The notes under the pieces were generated by a model. It did no database searches and was not told where the DNA came from. It saw only the letters and a list, made by a program, of their open reading frames with translations. DNA of 64,000 bases from a virus. Taxonomy: Duplodnaviria; Caudoviricetes. Of this stretch, positions 1,697 to 61,364 are shown piece after piece. The translations under genes and the position numbers were made by a program. The DNA is taken from IMG/VR virus record IMGVR_UViG_3300042350_003801; one strand, given 5' to 3'. Numbering within the stretch: position 1 is the stretch's first letter; each line of letters begins with the position of its first letter.

Positions 1697-2013
1697 TTCT
1701 TTTTGGTTACCTCTTCCTCTTTTTTCTTATTTTGTTTCCAAAGTCTTGGAATAACTCTCCCATTGGAGTAATCAATCTTTTTAATTACTCCCCCGAACCG
1801 GTCGTAATATAAATCAAAAATGTCAACCATTCTTGCTGCTCTACAAATGTCCACTTTTTCTCCTTCTTTATCCTTATAGTGAATTAAATAAGAATCCGAA
1901 GGAAGGTCATATGTATTAACATCTAAAGTGTTGGTAAAGAGAAGTTCGCACCTATAAGAGCTGGGAATGGCTTCTTTTTCTGGTGAAGACCAAGGTTCAA
2001 GAGTTGCGATCAC
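1693..2013 (-). CDS. hypothetical protein
   Basis: ORF track; ATGA overlap with neighbours. Confidence 0.65.
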   Translation of the reverse strand: MIATLEPWSSPEKEAIPSSYRCELLFTNTLDVNTYDLPSDSYLIHYKDKEGEKVDICRAARMVDIFDLYYDRFGGVIKKIDYSNGRVIPRLWKQNKKKEEEVTKKK

Positions 2014-2585
2014 ACTCTATTCCCCCATTGAATCTCGGGAAATGCTTCTTTAACAACATCGAAGGAAATGTTATACTTTTCTTGTAGCTTTTTATCTGTT
2101 ACAAAACAAATAATTTCAGCCTCACGAGGATGTAGACCTTGTAGCAGATTGATGAACATTGTTTCTCGGCGAATTTTAGATAATTCTGCATTTCCACCGT
2201 GAATGAAGTTTCGGAAATTATTATATTCCTTGCGAATAGTTGTTCGGTTATTACTACCATAAGAATCTAACATCTCAGTAGTCTTTAGTTGCTTATTCAT
2301 ACTATCTGAAAAGGTTGTATCATTTCCAACAACACCAATTTCCCTGGCATCGGCAAATGGAACATCCCCCGAGGGAACTGCCGAAACTAAGCTCGGGTCA
2401 TAATTCCAAATGAATACTGCCATCATAGATGGGTCCTTATATTCTTGAAGAACTTCTACTTTTTTGGCATTAGAACGTTGTTTTACAACAAGGTCAAAAA
2501 CTTCAAATAAAAAGGGATTGGCTGGAAGTTTTTTAGGCGTAGTCACCTTCGTCGTCTTCGTCTGTGTCGTCATAATTTTGATCAA
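2010..2585 (-). CDS. conserved T4-like hypothetical protein (likely start MTTQ at 2573)
   Basis: ORF track; start lies inside the remnant 3' end of the upstream gene. Confidence 0.7.
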   Translation of the reverse strand: MIKIMTTQTKTTKVTTPKKLPANPFLFEVFDLVVKQRSNAKKVEVLQEYKDPSMMAVFIWNYDPSLVSAVPSGDVPFADAREIGVVGNDTTFSDSMNKQLKTTEMLDSYGSNNRTTIRKEYNNFRNFIHGGNAELSKIRRETMFINLLQGLHPREAEIICFVTDKKLQEKYNISFDVVKEAFPEIQWGNRV

Positions 2586-2634
2586 ATGTTACTGCGTAAA
2601 GTATGTCTGGTTTGATAGGCCCGTCGCTATTATA
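2555..2634 (-). repeat. displaced original 3' end of the 2839-3060 gene; 80-bp imperfect direct repeat of 2858-2937
   Basis: 71/80 identical by manual alignment; encodes YNSDGPIKPDILYAVTFDQNYDDTDE versus YNYDGSIKPDILYAVTFDQNYDDTDE. Confidence 0.95.
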
Positions 2635-2791
2635 GTAACAAAAACCAATAAGAGCCAAAAACTCTATTGATTTTATAGACGCTTCATAGCAGATGCTAAA
2701 TGGTAAATAACCTTTTTAGTCTTAATTCCGCTCCACGTCCGTAATCGGTGTACTCCACCGATACCCGAAAAGTATTAACTAGCCGAGCGTC
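2612..2791 (-). ncRNA. orphan TnpB omegaRNA-like gene (29-nt leader, scaffold, putative guide)
   Basis: 2657-2762 homologous to the tnpB 3' region 55697-55804 with a compensatory stem change; own TAAATA promoter at 2794-2799. Confidence 0.8.
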
Positions 2792-2937
2792 TTTATTTAT
2801 CTAACTTTTGTTTGTGGATAACTGAAAATACTCTATTCTCAGGCGTCCTCATAATCTTCTTCGTCTGTGTCGTCATAATTTTGGTCAAAAGTTACTGCAT
2901 AAAGGATATCTGGTTTGATAGACCCGTCGTAGTTATA
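2635..2937 (-). mobile_element. non-autonomous, tnpB-less derivative of the tnpB element, carrying a recoded host-gene 3' end
   Basis: same junctions (ATGTAT left, TTACTAT right), same leader and same scaffold as 55695-57089. Confidence 0.75.
2794..2799 (-). promoter_or_regulatory. T4-type late promoter (TAAATA) for the orphan omegaRNA
   Basis: GATAAATAAAG directly upstream of the leader; same context as 57004-57009. Confidence 0.7.
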
Positions 2938-3060
2938 CATCTCAGGGTGAAGTCTAGGAGCCGGGGGATAAAACTTGGATGCTATAAATCCAATAATACC
3001 ACCGAGCATTAAAAAGCAAAGAACTAGTAGAACAGTTAGAGCAGTTAGTAGGCTGAACAT
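2839..3060 (-). CDS. small membrane protein with N-terminal transmembrane helix and acidic tail; 3' end supplied by the inserted element
   Basis: hydrophobic N-terminus; last ~32 codons lie within the element. Confidence 0.7.
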   Translation of the reverse strand: MFSLLTALTVLLVLCFLMLGGIIGFIASKFYPPAPRLHPEMYNYDGSIKPDILYAVTFDQNYDDTDEEDYEDA

Positions 3061-9226: not shown

Positions 9227-9451
9227 CTTTAAGTTCGGTAATTTCTTCCTGAATCCGACAATGGAGTTCTTTTAGTTGAGTTGTAGAAACATCATAGTCG
9301 TCAAACTCATTATACTTTTTAATTGACTTAATTGCCACGGAAAGGCAATAATCAAGATTTTGGAGGTCGTTCAAATTAAGATTCATAGTTCTTTCTTAAT
9401 GAAGAGTTGATGGTTACACCCTACTAGATTTCGCTGGGTTGTGGGTATTTA

Positions 9452-9474
9452 GTGGACGGTTTGGGTACTGTCAC
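9452..9474. repeat. dispersed palindromic motif GTGGACGGTT-N5-ACTGTCAC (one of at least 12 variants)
   Basis: variants at 10057, 18561, 20002, 22485, 27069, 27159, 28483, 28611, 30826, 31135, 32089, 59632. Confidence 0.8.
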
Positions 9475-10001
9475 AAGTCGTTAAAAAGAGGAACGAACAA
9501 CAAAGTCTTACCGTCGTTCAATAAGGTATGCATACCAATTAGTTCATAAGTGGCATCACTGGCGGCATCCCAGGCGGCATCCCAGGCGGCATCCCAGGCG
9601 GCATCCCAGGCGGCATTCCCGGCGGCATCCCTGGCGGCATCCCAGGCGGCATTCCCGGCGGCATCCCTGGCGGCATCCCAGGCGGCATTCCCGGCGGCAT
9701 CCCTGGCGGCATCCCAGGCGGCATTCCCGGCGGCATATCCGGCGGCATATCCGGCGGCAGCCCCGGCGGCAGCCCCGGCGGCATTCCGGGCGGCAGACCA
9801 GGCGGCATTCCCGGCGGCGGAATCTAGGGCGCGGTAGCGGCGGGCAACCTCTTCCCATTGGTCAGCGGTAAGACTATCCATAAACCGCCAGAAGTTCAAG
9901 ACGGTTTCGTAGTTTGGTCCTAGAAAGTCTTGTGGGTTAGTAAGAACTTCTGGATTTTCTAGTTCGTTGGCGAAATTTTGATGGGCTTTGGAGTAATTCA
10001 T
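9471..10001 (-). CDS. Ala-rich repeat protein, paralog 1 (22 AAxx units)
   Basis: conserved N-terminus YSKAHQNF...FLGPNYETV and C-terminus ATYEL...VPLFNDL shared with three other ORFs. Confidence 0.85.
9555..9818 (-). repeat. 12-bp tandem array GCCGCC-NGG-NAT, 22 units, with a 36-bp higher-order period
   Basis: read directly from the sequence. Confidence 0.95.
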
Positions 10002-16579: not shown

Positions 16580-17368
16580 TTATATTGTCTTCCAGGACTC
16601 CCTATATATTCCGGTTGAATCTGCTTCCAGCATAGACTTTCCGAACCACAGTTTAGGTGCAACAGTCTTTTTGCTATTTGCCAAATAACTTCCCCACCAC
16701 GAAAAAGAAGAGTTGCAGATAATATGATAAGAACACATACTCTGCAGACATAAATCAACCGCTGTTGTATTATTTTCCGAAATCAAAAATCTATCAACCC
16801 CAAAGAGTTCCTGTTCATAGCACCATTGATGGTCATCCGAAAATACAATAACAGGTAAAGAAGAGTCAAAATGCTTCAAGGCATCTTCATAATAAGACAT
16901 TGGCTGAAGAGGGTGGTTAGGATTATTAACATAGTCACACCTTCGGATGTGTAAAGAGATGTATTCTTCATTGCCTAGAAGATTTCTACAAAGACCTTGA
17001 ATTTCTTCAGAGAACGTAAAGTCTTTTCTAATTTCCTCTTCAATATGTTTGAAGTAGTTCTCGTTTTGAAAGTAGCCAAGAAGATTGGTATTATCTGGGC
17101 AATTGTCAAACAGATTTTGGTCAAAGTTAAATGTTGACTCAGTAACCGTTTGATAATCAGTGATACTATATTTTACTCCGCTAAATTGAAAAGTGTTGTA
17201 AATATTGGCATCAGAGTGTCTGACGTTTAAATCAGTTTGTCCTGCAACATTTGGAGATGGAATACAAAAGTCAAATCCTCTATTTCTTGCAATACCCCTA
17301 AGAGATGCATACTGAAACATCTGATTGCCGAGTCTTCCAAGATTTGCTAAATTGTTAAATGAAATCAT
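16580..17368 (-). CDS. alpha-1,2-fucosyltransferase (GT11)
   Basis: GRLGNQMFQYA, GYFQ, HIRRCDY, FSDD, NSSFSWW. Confidence 0.9.
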   Translation of the reverse strand: MISFNNLANLGRLGNQMFQYASLRGIARNRGFDFCIPSPNVAGQTDLNVRHSDANIYNTFQFSGVKYSITDYQTVTESTFNFDQNLFDNCPDNTNLLGYFQNENYFKHIEEEIRKDFTFSEEIQGLCRNLLGNEEYISLHIRRCDYVNNPNHPLQPMSYYEDALKHFDSSLPVIVFSDDHQWCYEQELFGVDRFLISENNTTAVDLCLQSMCSYHIICNSSFSWWGSYLANSKKTVAPKLWFGKSMLEADSTGIYRESWKTI

Positions 17369-17808
17369 AAGTCGTTAAAAAGAGGAACAAACAATAAGTC
17401 CTTACCATCGTCCAAAAGCGTGTGCATACAAATTAATTCATAAGTTGCATCACTGGCGGCATCCCTGGCGGCAAACCCGGCGGTGTCCCTGGCGGCATCA
17501 CTGGCGGCATCACTGGCCGCCCGCCAGGCGGCCGTGGCGGCAGCATCAGCGTCAGCTCCGGCGGCATCCCAGGCGGCATCCCAGGCGGCATTCCAGGCGG
17601 CATCCCTGGCGGCAACCCTGGCGGCAAGGGCTAGGGCACGGTAACGGCGAGCAACTTCATTCCATTGGTGTCTCGTAAGACCGTCCATATACAACCAGAA
17701 ATTCAGGACGGTTTCGTAGTTTGGTCCTAAAAAGTCTTGTGGATTTGTTGGGGCTTCAAGGTTTTGAAGGCGGTTGGAGAACTTTTGATGGGCTTTTGAG
17801 TGATTCAT
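17365..17808 (-). CDS. Ala-rich repeat protein, paralog 2
   Basis: same termini as paralog 1; about 14 repeat units. Confidence 0.85.
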
Positions 17809-18927: not shown

Positions 18928-19548
18928 TCATAAGTATTCGGGTGGGTCATATGGTTCCTGGAACATTTCTCGGGAGCGCATTTTTATTGCTCTTTGAGTT
19001 ATTGCATCTATAGAGGAATCTTCAACAAATCTGATTGCTAAAAGAAGTTCCCCTTCTTGTATTGTATTTAGTTCGGGATGACTGCTACTCTTAAATGGAA
19101 TCCAACTTGAACTAAAAATCATTTTTTGTTGAAGAACATCTCCATTGGGTCTATTCCGGTTTTTAAAATTGCACAAGCTCTTTTATAAAACTGACAATCT
19201 GTTTTTCCAGATTCTTCTAAAACGTCTTTAATCTTTTGCCAGTTTTGGCGGGTATGGTCATCCATTTGATTAGTGCATTGAGTTAATTTTATCTTCATAT
19301 TCTTGAAAAATATTCATTTCCCAATAATCAAACTCCTCGTGAATTTTATATACTGCATCCTTGTATGCTTTTTCAGTAAGACAACCAGGATTTTGATAGA
19401 GGACTTTCAGTTGTTCAAGAGCATTTTGAAGGCCTTGAATATATTCAAAACGATATTTGCGGTCATTATATTGCTCTAAGGTCTCGGTTACCCCATCTGG
19501 GTATTGAAACGTTTCTGTTTGAGAATTAAATGTAATTTGGTCAGTCAT
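18928..19548 (-). CDS. hypothetical ORFs (18928-19176, 19270-19548)
   Basis: ORF track. Confidence 0.45.
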
Positions 19549-20024
19549 AAGTCGTTAAAAAGAGGAACAAACAATAAGTCCTTACCATCGTCCAAAAGCG
19601 TGTGCATACCCATTAGTTCATAAGTGGCATACCCGGCGGCATTCCAGGCGGCATTCCTGGCGGCATTCCTGGCGGCATTCCAGGCGGCATACCCGGCGGC
19701 AGACATGGCGGCAGACATGGCGGCAGCCCCGGCGGCAGACCCGGCGGCAGACCTGGCGGCATCGTCTAGGGCATGATAACGGCGGGCAACTTCATTCCAT
19801 TGGTTCTCGGTAAGACCATCAATAAACCACCAGAAGTTAATGACGGTTTCGTAGTTTGGTCCTAGAAAATTCTGTGGATTTGTTAGGGCTTCAGGGTTTT
19901 GAAGGCCGTTGGAGAAGTTTTGATGTGCTTTAGAATAATGCATCTCTCGCTTTGTTTCATTGTATAAACAATAGCACAAACCGCGAGCATTGGGCGAAAC
20001 AGTGGACGGTTTTGAAACTGTCAC
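19545..20024 (-). CDS. Ala-rich repeat protein, paralog 3 (true start probably MHYSKAH near 19943)
   Basis: same termini as the other paralogs; 11 repeat units. Confidence 0.85.
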
Positions 20025-26623: not shown

Positions 26624-26691
26624 CTATTTATTATTAAGACTTTCATCACAAAACAGGCAAAACTATGTGAAAGAATTTGGCTAAAAGCCAA

Positions 26692-26764
26692 CGACCAATA
26701 GGAGATTTGAACTCCTGTAACCTACTAGACAGGTAGGTGTCCTAGACCACTAGACGAATTGGCC
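26692..26764 (-). tRNA. tRNA-Asp (GUC)
   Basis: canonical cloverleaf; CCTAC-CT GTC TA-GTAGG; AGGAG-TTCAAAT-CTCCT. Confidence 0.95.
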
Positions 26765-26766
26765 AT

Positions 26767-27756: not shown

Positions 27757-28041
27757 CGAGAACGGCGTGACTCGAACACGCGACTTACTGCTTAGCTTAC
27801 CACTACGGATTTCCCCGCCATTTCTGTTTGTGGTCTGGACCATCTCTTCATCTTATCTTACGACTTAGATGCTTCCCGTATGGCCTCTACACGTTCAGGA
27901 TTTCTCCCGCTTCGCTCGGGATTGCCATAGTCTTACGACTTTAGGGTTCCCCGAATTTGAGAAGTTACATTTATGAAGTTTCCCTCGTAAAGCTCCTATT
28001 TTCGAAGGCAGTTGTTCTAAATCCAACTGAACTACGTTCCC
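27757..28041 (-). tRNA. tRNA-Arg (UCU), split by a group I intron (exons 28041-28005 and 27795-27757)
   Basis: acceptor GGGAACG/CGTTCTC; spliced loop CT-TCT-AA within stem ACTGC/GCAGT. Confidence 0.9.
27796..28004 (-). mobile_element. group I intron (209 nt, no ORF)
   Basis: core elements AAATTCGGGGAA (P), GGCAATCCCGAGC (Q), GTAGAGGCCATACG (R), AAGAGATGGTCCA (S); U-G at the 5' splice site; terminal G. Confidence 0.9.
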
Positions 28042-28437: not shown

Positions 28438-28504
28438 TCACCCGTTAAGAATAGCACAAAACCACAAGAACGGGGAAAACGTGTGTCAGTTCGTCAATTG
28501 TCAC

Positions 28505-28570
28505 AAAAAGAGCCCCGAAGGGCTCCAGTCAACTCAACAACAGGAAACAGTTGGGCGCTTATCCCCAACT
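28505..28570 (-). ncRNA. candidate ~65-nt small RNA
   Basis: extended -10 TATTCT at 28576-28581; hairpin 28550-28569; terminator GAGCCC-TTCG-GGGCTC-TTTTT. Confidence 0.45.
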
Positions 28571-28622
28571 CATTAAGAATAACACAAAACCACCAAAACG
28601 GGGAAAGCGTGTGCCAGTTTGA

Positions 28623-29063
28623 TTACTGGCTAATTTCTTCAAGATGTGGCGGAACAAAAGAAGCCCGAATACCCATAACGCCGCCCAACTCACTTTGAGC
28701 CTCGCTATTATCGGGTCTGAACTCATAATACACAGCATTCTCAATAAGAACCCGCTCGGGTCTATACCGATACTCATCAAGTATCTGCTGGTTCTTCATT
28801 TTAGGTTTATGCATTCTCTTTTCTTCTCGTTCATACTGCTCTATCGCAGAATCAACATCGTATTTTACTCTGCTGTTTAACAATTCAGGCGTTTTGATGA
28901 TGTATTCATTTAACTCTTTCGGAGAGTATTTAGTGTTTCTTTGAATCTGGTCATTAAGAACCCAAACTTTCTCTTCAGATAAACCGGTGCAACGGGAAAT
29001 ACAGAAAACAATCGTTGTTAATGTCAGAGATATAACTGTCCATCTAATAGCTTCTTTTTTCAC
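28623..29063 (-). CDS. hypothetical protein with an N-terminal signal/TM segment
   Basis: hydrophobic N-terminus. Confidence 0.55.
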   Translation of the reverse strand: MKKEAIRWTVISLTLTTIVFCISRCTGLSEEKVWVLNDQIQRNTKYSPKELNEYIIKTPELLNSRVKYDVDSAIEQYEREEKRMHKPKMKNQQILDEYRYRPERVLIENAVYYEFRPDNSEAQSELGGVMGIRASFVPPHLEEISQ

Positions 29064-55165: not shown

Positions 55166-55683
55166 TTAACCTAGATCTTGTAAAAAACCCGTTTCAAGAA
55201 ATGCCTCTTGTTCCATATCAACAATAGGTGTTGCAAACTCAATAGGAGGATTTGCAGTTTCAAACGTTTCAGTGCATAGACCAAAAAGTTCAATAAGGGT
55301 TAGAGTATCTGTTACATCAATTGCCTTTAGGTCTTTTTCAATTACCCAGTCTTGAAATAGGTCAATCTCTTTCCAGGGGTCTTCGGAATAACCCCACGGT
55401 GGTTTAATGTCATTCATTATGCAGCTCCAGTTTTTAGAAATTCGGGTAGACCCTTATAAAGGCTATAGGCATACTGCCGTTGCTCTTCGGTTAGTGAATC
55501 TTGATGCAGTTCACTAAACTCCCCGGCGGGCTCTTCTCCTAAAAGGTCCATAACAATGTTTGGCTTCCAGTTGTCATATGCAAAAGGATTCTGCCAAGTT
55601 GAGTCTTCGGTTAGATTGTTATAAAAAACTGTTGCAAGTGTAGCCAGGTCGTCGGTTTGATTTCGGTTCATAATTAACTCCAT
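55166..55683 (-). CDS. two acidic hypothetical proteins (55166-55417, 55417-55683) between gp44 and gp62
   Basis: ORF track; the RBS of the upstream one lies in the gp44 remnant. Confidence 0.55.
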
Positions 55684-55694
55684 TCGATTTCATA
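55674..55694 (-). pseudogene. displaced original gp44 3' end (TAT GAA ATC GAA TGG AGT TAA = YEIEWS*), occupying the putative guide position
   Basis: matches the current gp44 end YELEFSG* at peptide level; abuts the element end TTAC. Confidence 0.75.
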
Positions 55695-55804
55695 GTAAAA
55701 AACTCTATTGATTTTCTAGACGCTTCACAGCAGATGCTAAATGGTGAAAATCACCGCTCAGTCTTAATTCCGCTCCACGCCCGTAATCGGCGTACTCCGC
55801 CGAT
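55695..55804 (-). ncRNA. cis omegaRNA scaffold overlapping the tnpB 3' end
   Basis: hairpin ATCGGCG/CGCCGAT; GGGCGTGGAG...TGAAGCGTC pairing typical of IS200/IS605 right ends; homologous to 2657-2762. Confidence 0.8.
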
Positions 55805-56901
55805 GAAATTTCTTTATCGGTTAGGCTGCGCCAACCTTCCTTTAAGATATTGATAGAGGCATTTAAGTCTCTATCATGTTTTGAGCCGCAAGACGGACAA
55901 GTCCATTCCCGAATGTTTAGAGGCATCTTGTCTTCCTTGTAACCACAAGAACTACAAGTCTTACTAGAGGGAAAGAAGCGGTTAATCTTAACCAAGACTT
56001 TTCCATACCAGTTGCATTTATACTCTAACATAGAAACAAAAGTAGACCAGGCTGCATCAGAAATAGACTTCGCCAGTTTGCGGTTTTTCAGCATTCCAGA
56101 AACATTAAGGTCTTCAAGAACTATTAAATCAAATGTGTTCACTAAAGCGGTAGACACATTATGAAGAAAATAAATTCTTGAATTGGTAATGAATTCGTGT
56201 ACTTTAGCAACTTTTATTCGTTGCCGGTTGTAACGATTACTACCTTTAGTCTTACGACTTAAATGTTTCTGTGCTTTTTTGAGTTTCGCTTGGTTCTTGC
56301 GAAACCACTTGGGGTTGTTGATAACTTGACCATTTGAAAGAATGAACAAGTCTTTAATGCCCAAATCAATACCTACTACTTTACCCGTAGAGGGTATTGG
56401 ATTGAGTTCTTGCTTAATCAAGATAGAGACAAAATATTTTCCGGTTGGTGTTTTAGAAACAGTAATGCTCCTGAAGTCTGCTTCTTCGGGAATTTCGCGG
56501 TCAATAACAACTTTAACCCAACCAATTTTTTCAAGTCTAACTAAAGAGTTTTTTTGGTCAAGTTTAAACCTTTGATTATTGAGTCTAAAAGACTGCCTAT
56601 TTGATTTCTTCTTGTATCTGGGTCTTCCGAGTTTAACCTTTCGTTTCTTGTTGAAAAACTGTTTCTTAAATTCAATAAAGTCATCTCTTTTTTGTTGAAG
56701 GGTAGAAGCAGAAACCTCTTTAAGAAACTCAAATTCAGGAGTGTCTTTAAGCGTCTTCTCGGTAATAACTTCCTTGGAGTTGTTATTGAAGTTTTCAACA
56801 AGTTTATTCCAAACAAACCTGCAACAGCCGAAAGTCTTTGCTAGTAGAATTTCTTGCTCTTCAGACGGATAAATCCGAAACTTGTATGCTTTTAAGTGCA
56901 T
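55705..56901 (-). CDS. tnpB: TnpB RNA-guided endonuclease (IS200/IS605 family)
   Basis: N-terminal [12 protein letters not shown]; RuvC GIDLG, VLEDL, DRDLNAS; zinc finger CSSCG...CPSCG; all three acidic catalytic residues present. Confidence 0.97.
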
Positions 56902-56913
56902 CCGCTCTGTTTA

Positions 56914-57009
56914 TTGGTTGGCAATACTATTTAGTAAAGTTTTATTTTATAAGGGGAGAATTGCTCCTCCCCACCTGAAAAGCGCCAACCAACCAGGCAT
57001 CTTTATTTA
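56914..57009 (-). promoter_or_regulatory. double late promoter / antisense leader module of tnpB
   Basis: TAAATA at 57004-57009 and 56928-56933; hairpin 56953-56972; TTGGTTGGC (56992-56984) complementary to GCCAACCAA (56922-56914). Confidence 0.7.
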
Positions 57010-57065
57010 GTGAAGTTTTAACAACAAAAAACATAATGCACAATATAATTTTCAAGTAAGTTAAG

Positions 57066-58055
57066 TTAACCAGAAAACTCCAATTCATACATAATTTCAG
57101 TTACACAAGACATCATATTGATTTCTTGGTCTGCAACTTTCGTTGCTAAATCCTGGTATTTTGCCAGAATCACAATACAAGGAGGAATCGTTGCTTTAAC
57201 GATTTCTTCATTTTTCCATAACTCATCAAAGATTTTTCTGATTGTAATGGATGGGTCGTTATCAATGTTCTGAATAACCCATTTTCGCACATTAGCATAG
57301 TTCTTGCTCTTGATGTGCTGAAATAATTCAATAACTGAAACATCGGATGTTGTTCCAAGAATACCAACATCAATGATACCGTTTCTTGCATATCCCTGAA
57401 GTTCTAGAAGTGTTCTCCTAAAATCAGGATAATATTTACCAACATAAGATGCAACAACTTTTTTGTCAAACTCAATATTCTCAGTTTCTAAAATCGTGCA
57501 AACACTCTTAAAGAATCGGGCAAGAATCTTTTGTTTTTCGTCAGACGGAAATGTGAAGTCCTTATTAATACACCTTGAGCACAGGGCTTTGTCAATTCGG
57601 TTCTTGTAATTACAAGTGAAGATGAAGACACAATTTGATTGAAAGTCTTCAATAAATGCCCGAAGTGCAAGTTGTGCATCGTGAGTGAGATTGTCGGCCT
57701 CGTCAATCAGTAGAAACTTCTTCCCGGTTGATAAAAGAGAAATCGTAGAAGCATATGATTTAACTTTATTGCGAATCACATCAATGCTTCTTTCTTCACT
57801 TCCATTAATCTTTATGAAGTCTCTACCTAGTTCATCTGCAAGCGCAAGCGTTACTGATGTTTTTCCAGTTCCAGACGGGCCAGAAAGGAGAAGATTTGGG
57901 ACATTTCCAGAATCCCTCAGTTCAATAAAGTATGACTTTAATTGTTCAGGAAGAATACATTCATCTACTGTTTTTGGCCTATGTTTTTCAGTGAAGAGGA
58001 ACTCATTGTTCATTATATAAATTGCGGGGTTAATCAAATAGTTCAACGTCTTCAA
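57066..58055 (-). CDS. gp44: clamp loader large subunit (last ~7 codons supplied by the tnpB element)
   Basis: EKHRPKTV, GPSGTGKT, IDEAD, SRC motif. Confidence 0.95.
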   Translation of the reverse strand: MKTLNYLINPAIYIMNNEFLFTEKHRPKTVDECILPEQLKSYFIELRDSGNVPNLLLSGPSGTGKTSVTLALADELGRDFIKINGSEERSIDVIRNKVKSYASTISLLSTGKKFLLIDEADNLTHDAQLALRAFIEDFQSNCVFIFTCNYKNRIDKALCSRCINKDFTFPSDEKQKILARFFKSVCTILETENIEFDKKVVASYVGKYYPDFRRTLLELQGYARNGIIDVGILGTTSDVSVIELFQHIKSKNYANVRKWVIQNIDNDPSITIRKIFDELWKNEEIVKATIPPCIVILAKYQDLATKVADQEINMMSCVTEIMYELEFSG

Positions 58056-58587
58056 TAAAGAATTTAAGGTCTTCTTCTGTCATAGAGACATCATTCTCCA
58101 CCTTAACTTTAGGTCCAATAAAATCATTGATTCGTTGAATTCTTGTTTCAATGTCTTTTACATCAAGATTATGAAGTTCATAATTTCCGGTGAAGTCAAA
58201 CAGTGGAACAAAGGTTAGAGAATCACCCCGTTCAAAGAGTTTGTGCATACCCATTAGTTCGTAAGTGGCAGCCCCGGCGGCGGCAACGACACGCCGATCG
58301 GAGGCGGCATACCCGGCGGCATACCAGGCGGCATTCCCGGCGGCAGCCCCGGCGGCATACCTGGCGGCATTCCCGGCGGCATTCCTGGCGGCATAGTAGG
58401 TGGCATAGTCGGGGGCATCATAACGGCGGGCAACTTCATCCCATTGGTTCTCGGTAAGACCATCCATAAACCACCAGAAGTTAAGGACGGTTTCGTAGTT
58501 TGGTCCTAGAAAATTCTGTGGATTTTTTAGGGCTTCAGGGTTTTGAAGTTCGTTGGAGAAGTTTTGATGTGCTTTGGAGTAGTTCAT
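58030..58587 (-). CDS. Ala-rich repeat protein, paralog 4, with an extended C-terminus
   Basis: same N-terminus and ATYELMGMH motif as the other paralogs; inserted between gp45 and gp44. Confidence 0.85.
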
Positions 58588-59574: not shown

Positions 59575-59642
59575 AAGTTTTCTTCCTTGAATAGTAATGT
59601 ATCACTAAAAACACATTAGCGGTGCTTATGTGTGCCAGTTCG

Positions 59643-61364
59643 TCAAGTGGCACGGGCAATGCGGCTGAAGTTACCCTGCTTCTCAAATTCAATAACGTGC
59701 TCAAACTTTTCTGTCACTCCTTCTCGATGAGAAATAATGAACGTATTAGTATCAGTAAAGACATACTTGATAATTTTAATGAATTCTTCCATACCAGATT
59801 CATCAAGTGAACTGTCTAAAATCTCATCAAAGATGAGCAGATTTGTATTAGTTGAGTTCTTGATTTTTACAAGTTCTCTAAACGTCCAAAGAATGCTAAG
59901 ATTAATTCGTTGTTTCTGTCCTTCTGAGAATGAACTATAAGAAAAATTATCATATAAAGGCGAGTTAATTGTTTCATTGAACTCTTCATCAAAGTTGAAG
60001 TTGATGAACATATCCATCGTATTGAGATACTTGTTAATCAGCTGATTGATTACTGGTAGATACTTCCGAATAATTCTAGTCTTAACTCCGCCATCTTTAA
60101 GAAGACCACTCATATACTCATAATACTGCAGTGAATCCTTCTTCTTAATAAAGTCAGATTGAATTTGCAGTAAATCGGTCTCAAGTTGAGATAGCTTTTC
60201 ATTTTCGCTATTGCGATTTTGAATACTTTCTTGAATGGATTCAATCTCCTGATTCAATTCAGAAATCTGCTTTTGAGCATGAGTGATTTGAATATTATGA
60301 GACTGAATCCTCTGATTAAGTTGTATAATTTGTTGAGATAGTTTTGTGAAAGTTCCTTGTTTTTCATCTTCTTTTTCAATTGCATCAGTTAGTTCTTTAA
60401 ATGCAACAGTTAATTCCTCTGATGATTTTTGATACTCCCCGATTTTGGAGTGTTTGAAACCTTCGTCAATTTCTTGAGTGCAAGTTGGACAAACTGAATT
60501 TTCGGTAAAGAACTTAAGGTCTTTATTAATTGTTCCAATTCTCTGGGATAGTTTACCCTTTAAGGTTCCAAGTTTCTTAAGTTTTTCTCCAGACGAAGAA
60601 ACATCAACGATTGTTTGGTTAAGTTCTTCTACTTTCTCTTCAATCTTTGTGTTATTTTCTAGGGTTTTATCAATGAAGTTTGTTAACTCTTCAATTCGTG
60701 ATTGCTTTTCGTTGATTCTGTTGTTGCCTTCTTTTTCAATCCCTTCAATGAAACTTCTTTGCATTACTGCTTTTTCGTGAAGATGAGTCTCTGAAACGTT
60801 TAGTTGCTTCAGTTCATCTTTGATTGTCTTTAGTTTATCTTTAAGAATAACATTCATTGAAGAGAAGATACGAATATCTAACAAGTCTTCAATAATTTCC
60901 CGTCTTGATGCAAGGGGCAATTGCATAAATGGCACATAGTTACTGCTACCAAGAATAACAATTTGAATGAACGTCTTATAGTTCATCTTTAGAACATTTT
61001 GCTCAAACCACTTTTGTTGATCTACGGCAGAGGCATCTTGCTCAATTAATTGCCCATTTCTATACAGTTCAAAAATATTTGGTTTAAGACCTCTTCTCAC
61101 CATCCATTGCGTTTGGTTTGCTGAAAACTCTAGTTCAACTACACAGTCTTTTTCATTAATTGAGTTAATCAGTTGTGGAAGATTAACTGGTCTATATGCT
61201 TTCTTGAATAGGGCAAATGTAATAGATTCAATAACCGTTGACTTTGAACTTCCGTTTTTACCAATAAGAAGTGTTGTTGGGTTTTTATTCAGTTCAATCT
61301 CAACAAAATTATTACCAACGGAAAGGAGGTTCTTATAGCGTACTTTCTCTAAGGTTATCATCAA
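59643..61364 (-). CDS. gp46: recombination endonuclease ATPase subunit (SbcC/Rad50-like)
   Basis: GKNGSSKS, CPTC zinc hook, FSEGQKQR, LIFDE. Confidence 0.95.
   Translation of the reverse strand: MMITLEKVRYKNLLSVGNNFVEIELNKNPTTLLIGKNGSSKSTVIESITFALFKKAYRPVNLPQLINSINEKDCVVELEFSANQTQWMVRRGLKPNIFELYRNGQLIEQDASAVDQQKWFEQNVLKMNYKTFIQIVILGSSNYVPFMQLPLASRREIIEDLLDIRIFSSMNVILKDKLKTIKDELKQLNVSETHLHEKAVMQRSFIEGIEKEGNNRINEKQSRIEELTNFIDKTLENNTKIEEKVEELNQTIVDVSSSGEKLKKLGTLKGKLSQRIGTINKDLKFFTENSVCPTCTQEIDEGFKHSKIGEYQKSSEELTVAFKELTDAIEKEDEKQGTFTKLSQQIIQLNQRIQSHNIQITHAQKQISELNQEIESIQESIQNRNSENEKLSQLETDLLQIQSDFIKKKDSLQYYEYMSGLLKDGGVKTRIIRKYLPVINQLINKYLNTMDMFINFNFDEEFNETINSPLYDNFSYSSFSEGQKQRINLSILWTFRELVKIKNSTNTNLLIFDEILDSSLDESGMEEFIKIIKYVFTDTNTFIISHREGVTEKFEHVIEFEKQGNFSRIARAT

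Follow-up and report, generated by a model that had tools for sequence, protein, structure and literature searches.

A protein-free omegaRNA cassette between two allelic copies of a gene end in a T4-like cyanophage, a possible natural relative of rescue-type gene drives

The 'OMEGA' elements of the IS200/IS605/IS607 group, composed of TnpB and its omegaRNA, act as RNA-guided homing endonucleases (Karvelis 2021, PMC8612924; Meers 2023, PMC10055086). In addition, PATE-like protein-free derivatives of IS200/IS605 encode omegaRNAs that are used in trans (Meers 2023, PMC10055086). The present analysis concerns a stretch of 64,000 nucleotides (nt) from the virus record IMGVR_UViG_3300042350_003801 (Duplodnaviria; Caudoviricetes), in the following called the window, in which an insert of 204 nt separates two copies of the 3' end of a small gene, gene A, at the start of the next gene, gene B. 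The insert is a tnpB-less derivative of the TnpB element located at 55.7-57.0 kb of the same window, 53 kb away. We consider it fairly probable, judging from the sequence, that it homes by means of its guide RNA, which would act in trans, and that it brings its own rescue copy along, i.e. that it is a natural element of the 'home-and-rescue' type.

As in OMEGA elements, the TnpB of the window is ISDra2-like with an intact RuvC domain and zinc finger, the omegaRNA overlaps the 3' end of tnpB and the right end, and the predicted guide comes from the flanking DNA that begins where the right end stops. For the short motif that such elements have 5' of the target in empty sites, there is a candidate here. 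OMEGA elements home by cutting of the empty allele and its repair from the occupied one, and the same is proposed here. Unlike in these elements, the insert resides in a lytic, T4-like freshwater cyanophage, its target is part of a gene 3' end which overlaps the next gene, no tnpA adjoins, and a diverged second copy of the interrupted segment, never found in canonical members, stands between motif and element. With the PATE-like elements the insert shares the reduction to ends plus omegaRNA and the presumed dependence on a TnpB encoded elsewhere in the genome; it differs in its left end, which is a phage late promoter with leader, in the flanking rescue duplication and in its location in a phage instead of a bacterial chromosome. 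TnpB homing has so far been known from bacterial IS elements which are either intergenic or can afford to disrupt a gene. In this phage the surrounding genes are tightly packed and overlapping, and the disruption was apparently solved in the DNA by a spare gene end, at three loci.

IStrons, in which IS605 or IS607 elements are fused to group I introns (PMC10690162), are likewise TnpB-family elements that spare the interrupted gene. They restore it by RNA splicing, whereas here the gene is restored in the DNA by the spare gene end. The free-standing homing endonucleases of T-even phages (Seg and Mob, known for intronless homing and marker exclusion) resemble the insert as selfish cassettes between conserved phage genes, with a few substitutions in a conserved neighbouring gene marking self versus non-self and with co-converted flanking markers. 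In contrast to them, recognition would be mediated by a guide RNA and not by a protein, and the nuclease gene lies 53 kb from the cassette. Synthetic 'home-and-rescue' or 'cleave-and-rescue' CRISPR drives link a recoded, guide-resistant rescue copy of a required gene to a guide that is aimed at the wild-type allele. The same combination of a guide against the wild-type allele and a linked guide-resistant rescue copy is proposed here, with the differences that the system is natural, phage-borne and TnpB-based and that the rescue comprises a 3' segment only, mostly a pre-existing natural allele. The literature searched on TnpB and omegaRNA describes neither a cassette with a replacement copy of the interrupted gene segment nor a multi-locus arrangement in a lytic phage.

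Table 1 Coordinates of the features in the window (TAM transposon-adjacent motif, aa amino acids)
Feature	Position	Strand	Remarks
Gene A	2839..3060	-	73-aa small membrane protein, phrog_275; PHROG match E 5.6e-11
Gene B	2010..2564	-	DUF6433 / phrog_461; Pfam E 2.3e-32
Candidate TAM ATGTAT	2935..2940	-	Within gene A, adjoining the duplicated segment on its 5' side
Upstream ('new') copy of gene A 3' end	2834..2937	-	Class-2 allele ending ...EEDYEDA-stop
Junction spacer between new tail and element (TAGAGTATTTTCAGTTATCCACAA...)	2810..2833	-	~24 nt; contains GAGTAT
Left-end remnant: late-promoter-like GATAAATAA and leader	2763..2809	-	70% identical to 56973-57019 upstream of tnpB
OmegaRNA scaffold / right end	2632..2762	-	131 nt; ends in family-conserved hairpin and TTACTAT
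Predicted guide AATAGCGACGGGCCTATCAA	2612..2631	-	First 20 nt after right end; by analogy with TnpB omegaRNAs
Downstream ('old') copy of gene A 3' end	2528..2634	-	Class-1 allele, ...DEDDEGDYA-stop
tnpB	55705..56901	-	398 aa, apparently intact; Pfam HTH_OrfB_IS605, OrfB_IS605, Cas12f1-like_TNB
Full tnpB element (leader, tnpB, omegaRNA)	55692..57019	-	From alignments
gp44 clamp-loader ATGTAT and replacement tail ELEFSG-stop	57066..57092	-	ATGTAT at 57087-57092
Old gp44 tail (EIEWS-stop)	55674..55691	-	Directly after tnpB element right end; cis omegaRNA guide position

An omegaRNA in the insert was already assumed when the DNA was read without database searches (the sequence-only reading). The relationship of the insert to the phage's own TnpB element is borne out by repeat search and blastn: positions 2657-2762 are about 89% identical to 55698-55804. 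Because the homologous blocks bracket the tnpB open reading frame (ORF), the insert is seen as a tnpB-less miniature of the full element. In a ten-sequence alignment the scaffold has a consensus fold of 28 pairs, three of them with double compensatory changes and few broken, and its folding z value is -3.6. Eleven IMG/VR loci with tnpB, aligned at their 3' ends (L082-L093; such labels designate individual relatives or contigs), conserve a right end of hairpin and TTACTAT, behind which the flanks diverge, and the miniature keeps the canonical right end common to L083-L093. In four lake-water metagenomes, several contigs match the window up to 2630-2633 and then continue into unrelated DNA, and between 2658 and 2750 the coverage rises to 4-16 times the level in the flanks. 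Multi-copy depth and the many right flanks therefore indicate that the RNA module exists in several copies in nature, with its boundary at 2632.

With respect to expression, the box CTAAATA occurs 25 times on the coding strand of the window and once on the other, and ATAAATA in a ratio of 16:3; due to this strong strand bias such boxes behave like late promoters, and a CTAAATA-type box is likely the late-promoter core in this phage. CTAAATA is often located 20-60 nt upstream of ORF starts (e.g. on the minus strand at 57010, 56934, 3220, 4083 and 20797), and two copies precede tnpB. No Rfam family was detected in the insert at gathering or permissive thresholds and no intron features were found there by the Rfam scan, while the tRNA/tmRNA scan returned only a tRNA-Asp elsewhere in the window. 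Exact-pattern scans of IMG/VR with the scaffold core and the deletion joint of the miniature gave no match, the insert has no match among deposited phages, and the junction spacer (2810-2833) resembles neither the relatives nor the full element. A complete 250-kb relative in IMG/VR contains the tnpB-linked omegaRNA only. Two other interpretations of the insert were discarded. An intrinsic terminator (hairpin and U-run, 2640-2669) was rejected, as the hairpin is a conserved part of the family right end, and also because the gene Z copy described below keeps the hairpin with a different sequence and no U-run. A PeSL-type T4 regulatory cassette, considered for a sigma70-like TTGGCT-18-TATAAT match, was dropped on the homology to the tnpB element.

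TnpB itself matches the structures of ISDra2 TnpB with an E value of 9e-73, and its RuvC motifs of the D/E/D type and its CxxC...CxxC zinc finger align with the same motifs of the top match, 9yyg. The window holds only this one nuclease gene that could use the cassette RNA. The search for tnpA covered the two elements and their immediate surroundings and found none, and no ORF lies inside the miniature. In L085 (899-1510) and in L101 (upstream of 1501), which are close and distant tnpB relatives, an ORF in front of tnpB ends in ...ITSF.ARIYG.RRSKR..E.LI, which on inspection by eye alone looks like the TnpA of IS607-type elements, a serine recombinase. Genes for TnpB are common in phage records (436 records), none of them close. 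A 243-kb record shared with L197, a relative which also bears the gene A cassette, contains a 5'-truncated tnpB of 214 aa (L211, 2501-3145), inverted relative to its neighbours and not at gp44; a cassette-sharing relative therefore has at least one decayed tnpB copy.

The repeat search of the window revealed a direct repeat of 83 nt with 88% identity (2552-2634 versus 2855-2937) and, except for gene-family and tandem repeats, no other close long repeat pair. Between 2858-2937 and 2555-2634 a script counted differences at nine of 80 positions, in agreement with the sequence-only reading. In the frame of gene A, six codon differences are synonymous (AAC/AAT, GAT/GAC, ATC/ATA, TAT/TAC, ACT/ACA, GAC/GAT) and two are not, namely TAC/AGC (Y/S) and TCT/CCT (S/P). 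The 80 bp given there as the length form the core of the repeat; the full duplication is longer and comprises about 105 nt (~2834-2937 versus ~2528-2634). Each copy extends some 8 nt past its stop codon. The two differ by an indel where the acidic C-terminus is encoded, and over their full length they are 12-20% diverged. All genes in this part of the window are on the minus strand. Gene A is complete only through the new tail, in which a non-functional duplicate of the gene B start is also found. The old tail is no longer translated as gene A and holds the ribosome site and the ATG of gene B, whose start (MTTQTK...) had correctly been placed in it.

A single tail with the gene B ATG inside and without insert is present in all relatives lacking the element (L001-L007, L191-L194, L205, L207-L210). 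In every uninterrupted relative the end of gene A overlaps the start of gene B, and the tail is preceded by ATGTAT (or ATGTAC). The duplication is thus found in none of the omegaRNA-free relatives. It is also not the upstream copy that is ancestral: the downstream copy is the resident-type allele, because it continues without a break into gene B, belongs by its ending to class 1 together with L007, L191 and L205, and shares the AGC codon with the uninterrupted L205. The upstream copy is, as judged by the alignment of gene A with 20 homologue clusters, a different natural allele with one carrier-specific codon. Natural tails of gene A fall into two classes, ending in ...EEGNYT-stop (like the old ...EGDYA-stop) and ...EDYEDA-stop (like the new one), and the homology of the new copy to natural class-2 alleles (L192) extends to GCCTGAGAA. 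Eleven of the 12 variant states at the synonymous differences are also found in natural uninterrupted alleles, the exception being ATA in the old tail. The earlier view that the new tail was recoded at synonymous sites had to be given up, since it is mostly standing allelic variation between two natural allele classes. CCT and ATA are derived states of the old tail and occur in no natural allele. The TAC codon of the new tail is restricted to proteins of cassette-bearing contigs (P0021, P0022, P0023, P0025); its position is P, S or R in all 20 other clusters. A separate observation concerns L206 (643-999), where the 5' part of the new tail (TAC, TCT, GAT...) is joined to the old tail GACGAAGACGACGAAGGT and the element is absent. 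This joint is the expected product of recombination between the two repeat copies; the scaffold runs directly afterwards into unrelated GC-rich DNA, and the contig may be chimeric.

The old tail begins exactly at the right end, i.e. in the position of an omegaRNA guide, so that its first 16-20 nt would be the guide. The terminal TAT of the element may be counted as flank instead, which shifts the guide by 3 nt and changes nothing else. Upstream of the first guide-base match, the sequences are GAGATGTAT in intact gene A, ATTATGTAT in gp44 of the window, GCATGTAT at the L082-type gp44 site as read in the empty relative L110 (preceded by ATGTAT) and GGGGTAT in gene Z of L197. From these four sites a TAM ending in GTAT, beside a right end ending in CTAT, can reasonably be inferred. 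An unoccupied natural allele with the candidate recognition site exists in L205, in which genes A and B overlap without interruption: ATGTAT is followed by AATAGCGACGGGTCTATTAA, which agrees with the guide at 12/12 seed positions and at 18/20 overall. The new tail mismatches the guide at positions 3, 4, 5 and 13. As TnpB is known to depend on the seed, these mismatches should save the new tail from cleavage, and the carrier's own functional gene A should not be a target. Of the escape changes formerly proposed, the guide mismatches at 3-5 and 13 and the carrier-only TAC thus remain; the change from TCT to CCT does not, as the derived state is that of the old copy, which has ceased to code, and not that of the new one, and the concentration in the seed is not upheld either (see below).

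The layout at gene A, with new copy, promoter, omegaRNA and old copy, recurs at gp44 and at gene Z. At gp44 the order is ATGTAT, the ELEFSG-stop tail, the tnpB element and the old EIEWS-stop tail with the ribosome site of the next gene. The empty relative L110 reads ...ATGTAC followed by GAACTTGAATGGAATTAA at the window-type gp44 site, and L082 has kept a longer old gp44 tail (TACTGAAATTATGTATGAACTGGAATGGAGTTAA). At gene Z a second miniature is found in L197 (2037-2500) and L191 (~1045-1500), the equivalent empty site of the window being 3207/3208. It lies between two 128-nt copies, about 20% diverged, of a gene for 45 aa (MLRSKKQEK...) and is 87-89% identical to the gene A miniature, with which it shares the internal deletion joint between CTTTTCGGGT and ATCGGTGG. 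The common joint means that one miniature lineage colonised at least two loci, each with its locus-specific duplication. The upstream copy of gene Z is preceded by GGTAT in L197 and by GGCAT in L191. Where gene Z is uninterrupted and matches the target, as in the window, the sequence is GGTGT, and uninterrupted alleles with GGTAT (L192) have seed mismatches. This pattern of TAM and seed is possibly an escape signature, seen in few alleles.

Some observations on the guide-side flanks of related loci may be added. Deletions starting exactly at the right end were noted in the window (55692-55700) and L088 as compared with L082 (1205-1235), where the first 16 nt of this flank are gone, and in L097 as compared with L096, where 29 nt are missing. 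Each of these deletions places a new sequence in the guide position, preceded by GTAT or GTAC in the intact gene. A search for the empty site of L083 matched only the element's own contigs, and a search with the 18-nt guide of L087 gave three matches, roughly as many as chance alone would produce, all in unrelated contigs that lack GTAT and differ in their flanks.

The gene A cassette is also present in L197/L198, a genome about 92% identical to the window overall. In this comparison positions 2500-2999 contain five mismatches and 2600-2799 are identical, and the shared tract is bounded by recombination switches at ~2997 and ~2514. The cassette with about 60-120 nt of flank on each side is thus 99-100% identical across genomes of about 92% identity, which would fit copying with co-conversion.

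The mechanism we propose as the fairly probable one would start with expression of the cassette and loading of the orphan omegaRNA in trans by the TnpB encoded at 55705-56901. TnpB would then cut co-infecting genomes which possess ATGTAT and a matching tail (AATAGCGACGGG...), and recombinational repair from the cassette-bearing genome would copy in the new tail together with the cassette and so result in drive. The carrier would be protected because, at seed positions 3-5, the guide does not match the intact gene A of the carrier itself; the upstream copy restores gene A, and the downstream copy preserves the start of gene B. In a wider and more tentative version, to which we give somewhat less than even chances, lytic freshwater cyanophages might host a multi-locus drive with one TnpB serving several protein-free cassettes at GTAT motifs in overlapping genes, each with a guide-resistant rescue copy, which spread among co-infecting phages while gene function is kept and leave TAM or seed escape alleles behind. 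If active, the system would give engineered gene drives of the rescue type their first counterpart in nature and would be an RNA-guided analogue of the T-even Seg/Mob homing endonucleases. Compact pairs of TnpB and omegaRNA could also be obtained from it, along with natural guide cassettes that act in trans, and drive, resistance alleles and guide decay would be directly observable in lake metagenome time series.

Several results speak against homing with rescue. The candidate TAM is derived from only four sites and some empty alleles have GTAC or GTGT; in particular, uninterrupted gene Z alleles with a matching target have GTGT and not GTAT. Position 13 of the guide mismatches every natural allele seen. 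Among metagenome contigs of the JGI only an unrelated chance match (L190) was obtained in the search for the junction or the empty allele, with a scan pattern that demanded a CCN codon, was therefore blind to alleles with TCT (L205, for example) and failed to recover even the junction of the window itself. Insert-free contigs were absent from the four lake runs, a weak result since contigs drop rare variants. Of the terminal hairpin, which the miniature keeps in full, the tnpB-linked omegaRNA has no 3' half. Judging from the alignment, the differences between the tails are mostly ordinary allelic polymorphism. Their concentration next to the junction, as formerly claimed, disappears over the full duplication (4/20 versus 17/84); within the 80 nt there are 4/20 mismatches in the guide-target part versus 5/60 elsewhere, and the seed enrichment is not significant (p = 0.24, pooled over three loci), so that escape mutations concentrated in the seed are not supported. 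The canonical chemistry of IS605/IS607 (Y1 or serine-recombinase transposition) does not yield the duplication, and a flank duplication is absent in 25 other tnpB loci (L083-L109). Finally, high-identity mosaic tracts are common elsewhere in these genomes, and the shared cassette tract is no unique sign of drive.

Part of this evidence favours the most serious alternative, which we regard as unlikely but worth weighing, namely that a non-autonomous mini element of the IS605/IS607 type inserted in the 3' end of gene A, that a rare illegitimate recombination with an intact co-infecting genome restored the gene and gave rise to the duplication, and that the RNA module, a passenger guiding no nuclease, was spread only by the ordinary recombination of T4-like phages. 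The frequent mosaic tracts of high identity between the window and L197, the missing enrichment of mismatches in the seed and the truncated cis omegaRNA would be expected of such an inert remnant, as would the derived changes of a non-coding type in the old tail (CCT and ATA, one of them inside the guide) and the truncated tnpB at another locus of the 243-kb relative with the same cassette. It explains less well that the miniature has retained promoter, leader, full scaffold, canonical right end and compensatory substitutions, and that tnpB is intact in this genome. The architecture moreover recurs at three loci, with one miniature lineage at two of them, the junction lies exactly at the motif (ATGTAT in gene A and gp44, GGTAT in gene Z), and a natural allele with a perfect seed exists.

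Much less probable is that the guide directs TnpB against gene A of rival phages and degrades their genomes without copying, the new tail being merely the resistant allele of the carrier. This would account for guide position, candidate TAM and seed mismatches equally well, and phage homing endonucleases are known to kill competitors which are too divergent (review PMC13565253). However, the near-identical cassette with its ~60-120 nt of co-converted flanks in a divergent genome is better explained by copying. A target-site duplication made by transposition itself, suggested by direct repeats flanking a mobile-element remnant, can be dismissed, as had been argued from the sequence before, because the copies are about 105 nt long, 12-20% diverged, of different allele classes and distinguished by an indel, an unrelated spacer of ~24 nt stands between the upstream copy and the element on the left side, and canonical family members lack duplications, IS200/IS605/IS607 elements making none of this kind (PMC13565253).

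As to how the duplication of homing with rescue could have originated, one candidate is that the element inserted in the canonical way and that selection then favoured an illegitimate recombination with an intact genome, and another is aberrant excision with re-insertion; neither fits all three left junctions. A tandem duplication by unequal crossover at a repeated CCTGAGA heptamer and an over-length-circle or permuted-insertion model were rejected, since they do not fit all three loci.

Other features of the window lie apart from these loci. A group I intron was recognised by Rfam at 27814-28014 on the minus strand (66 bits), about 1 kb from the tRNA-Asp(GTC) at 26691-26765 on the same strand. 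A repeat family with four members (9434-9983, 17364-17790, 19544-19925 and 58188-58569), 70-83% identical over 200-300 nt, presumably represents paralogous genes with a repetitive N- or C-terminal region; its first copy includes a 12-nt periodic array. In addition, a motif of about 50 nt (AAAACCAC..ACGGGGAAA.CGTGTG.CAGTT) occurs three times, twice in tandem at 28440-28632 with a distance of 128 nt and once at 59607-59653.

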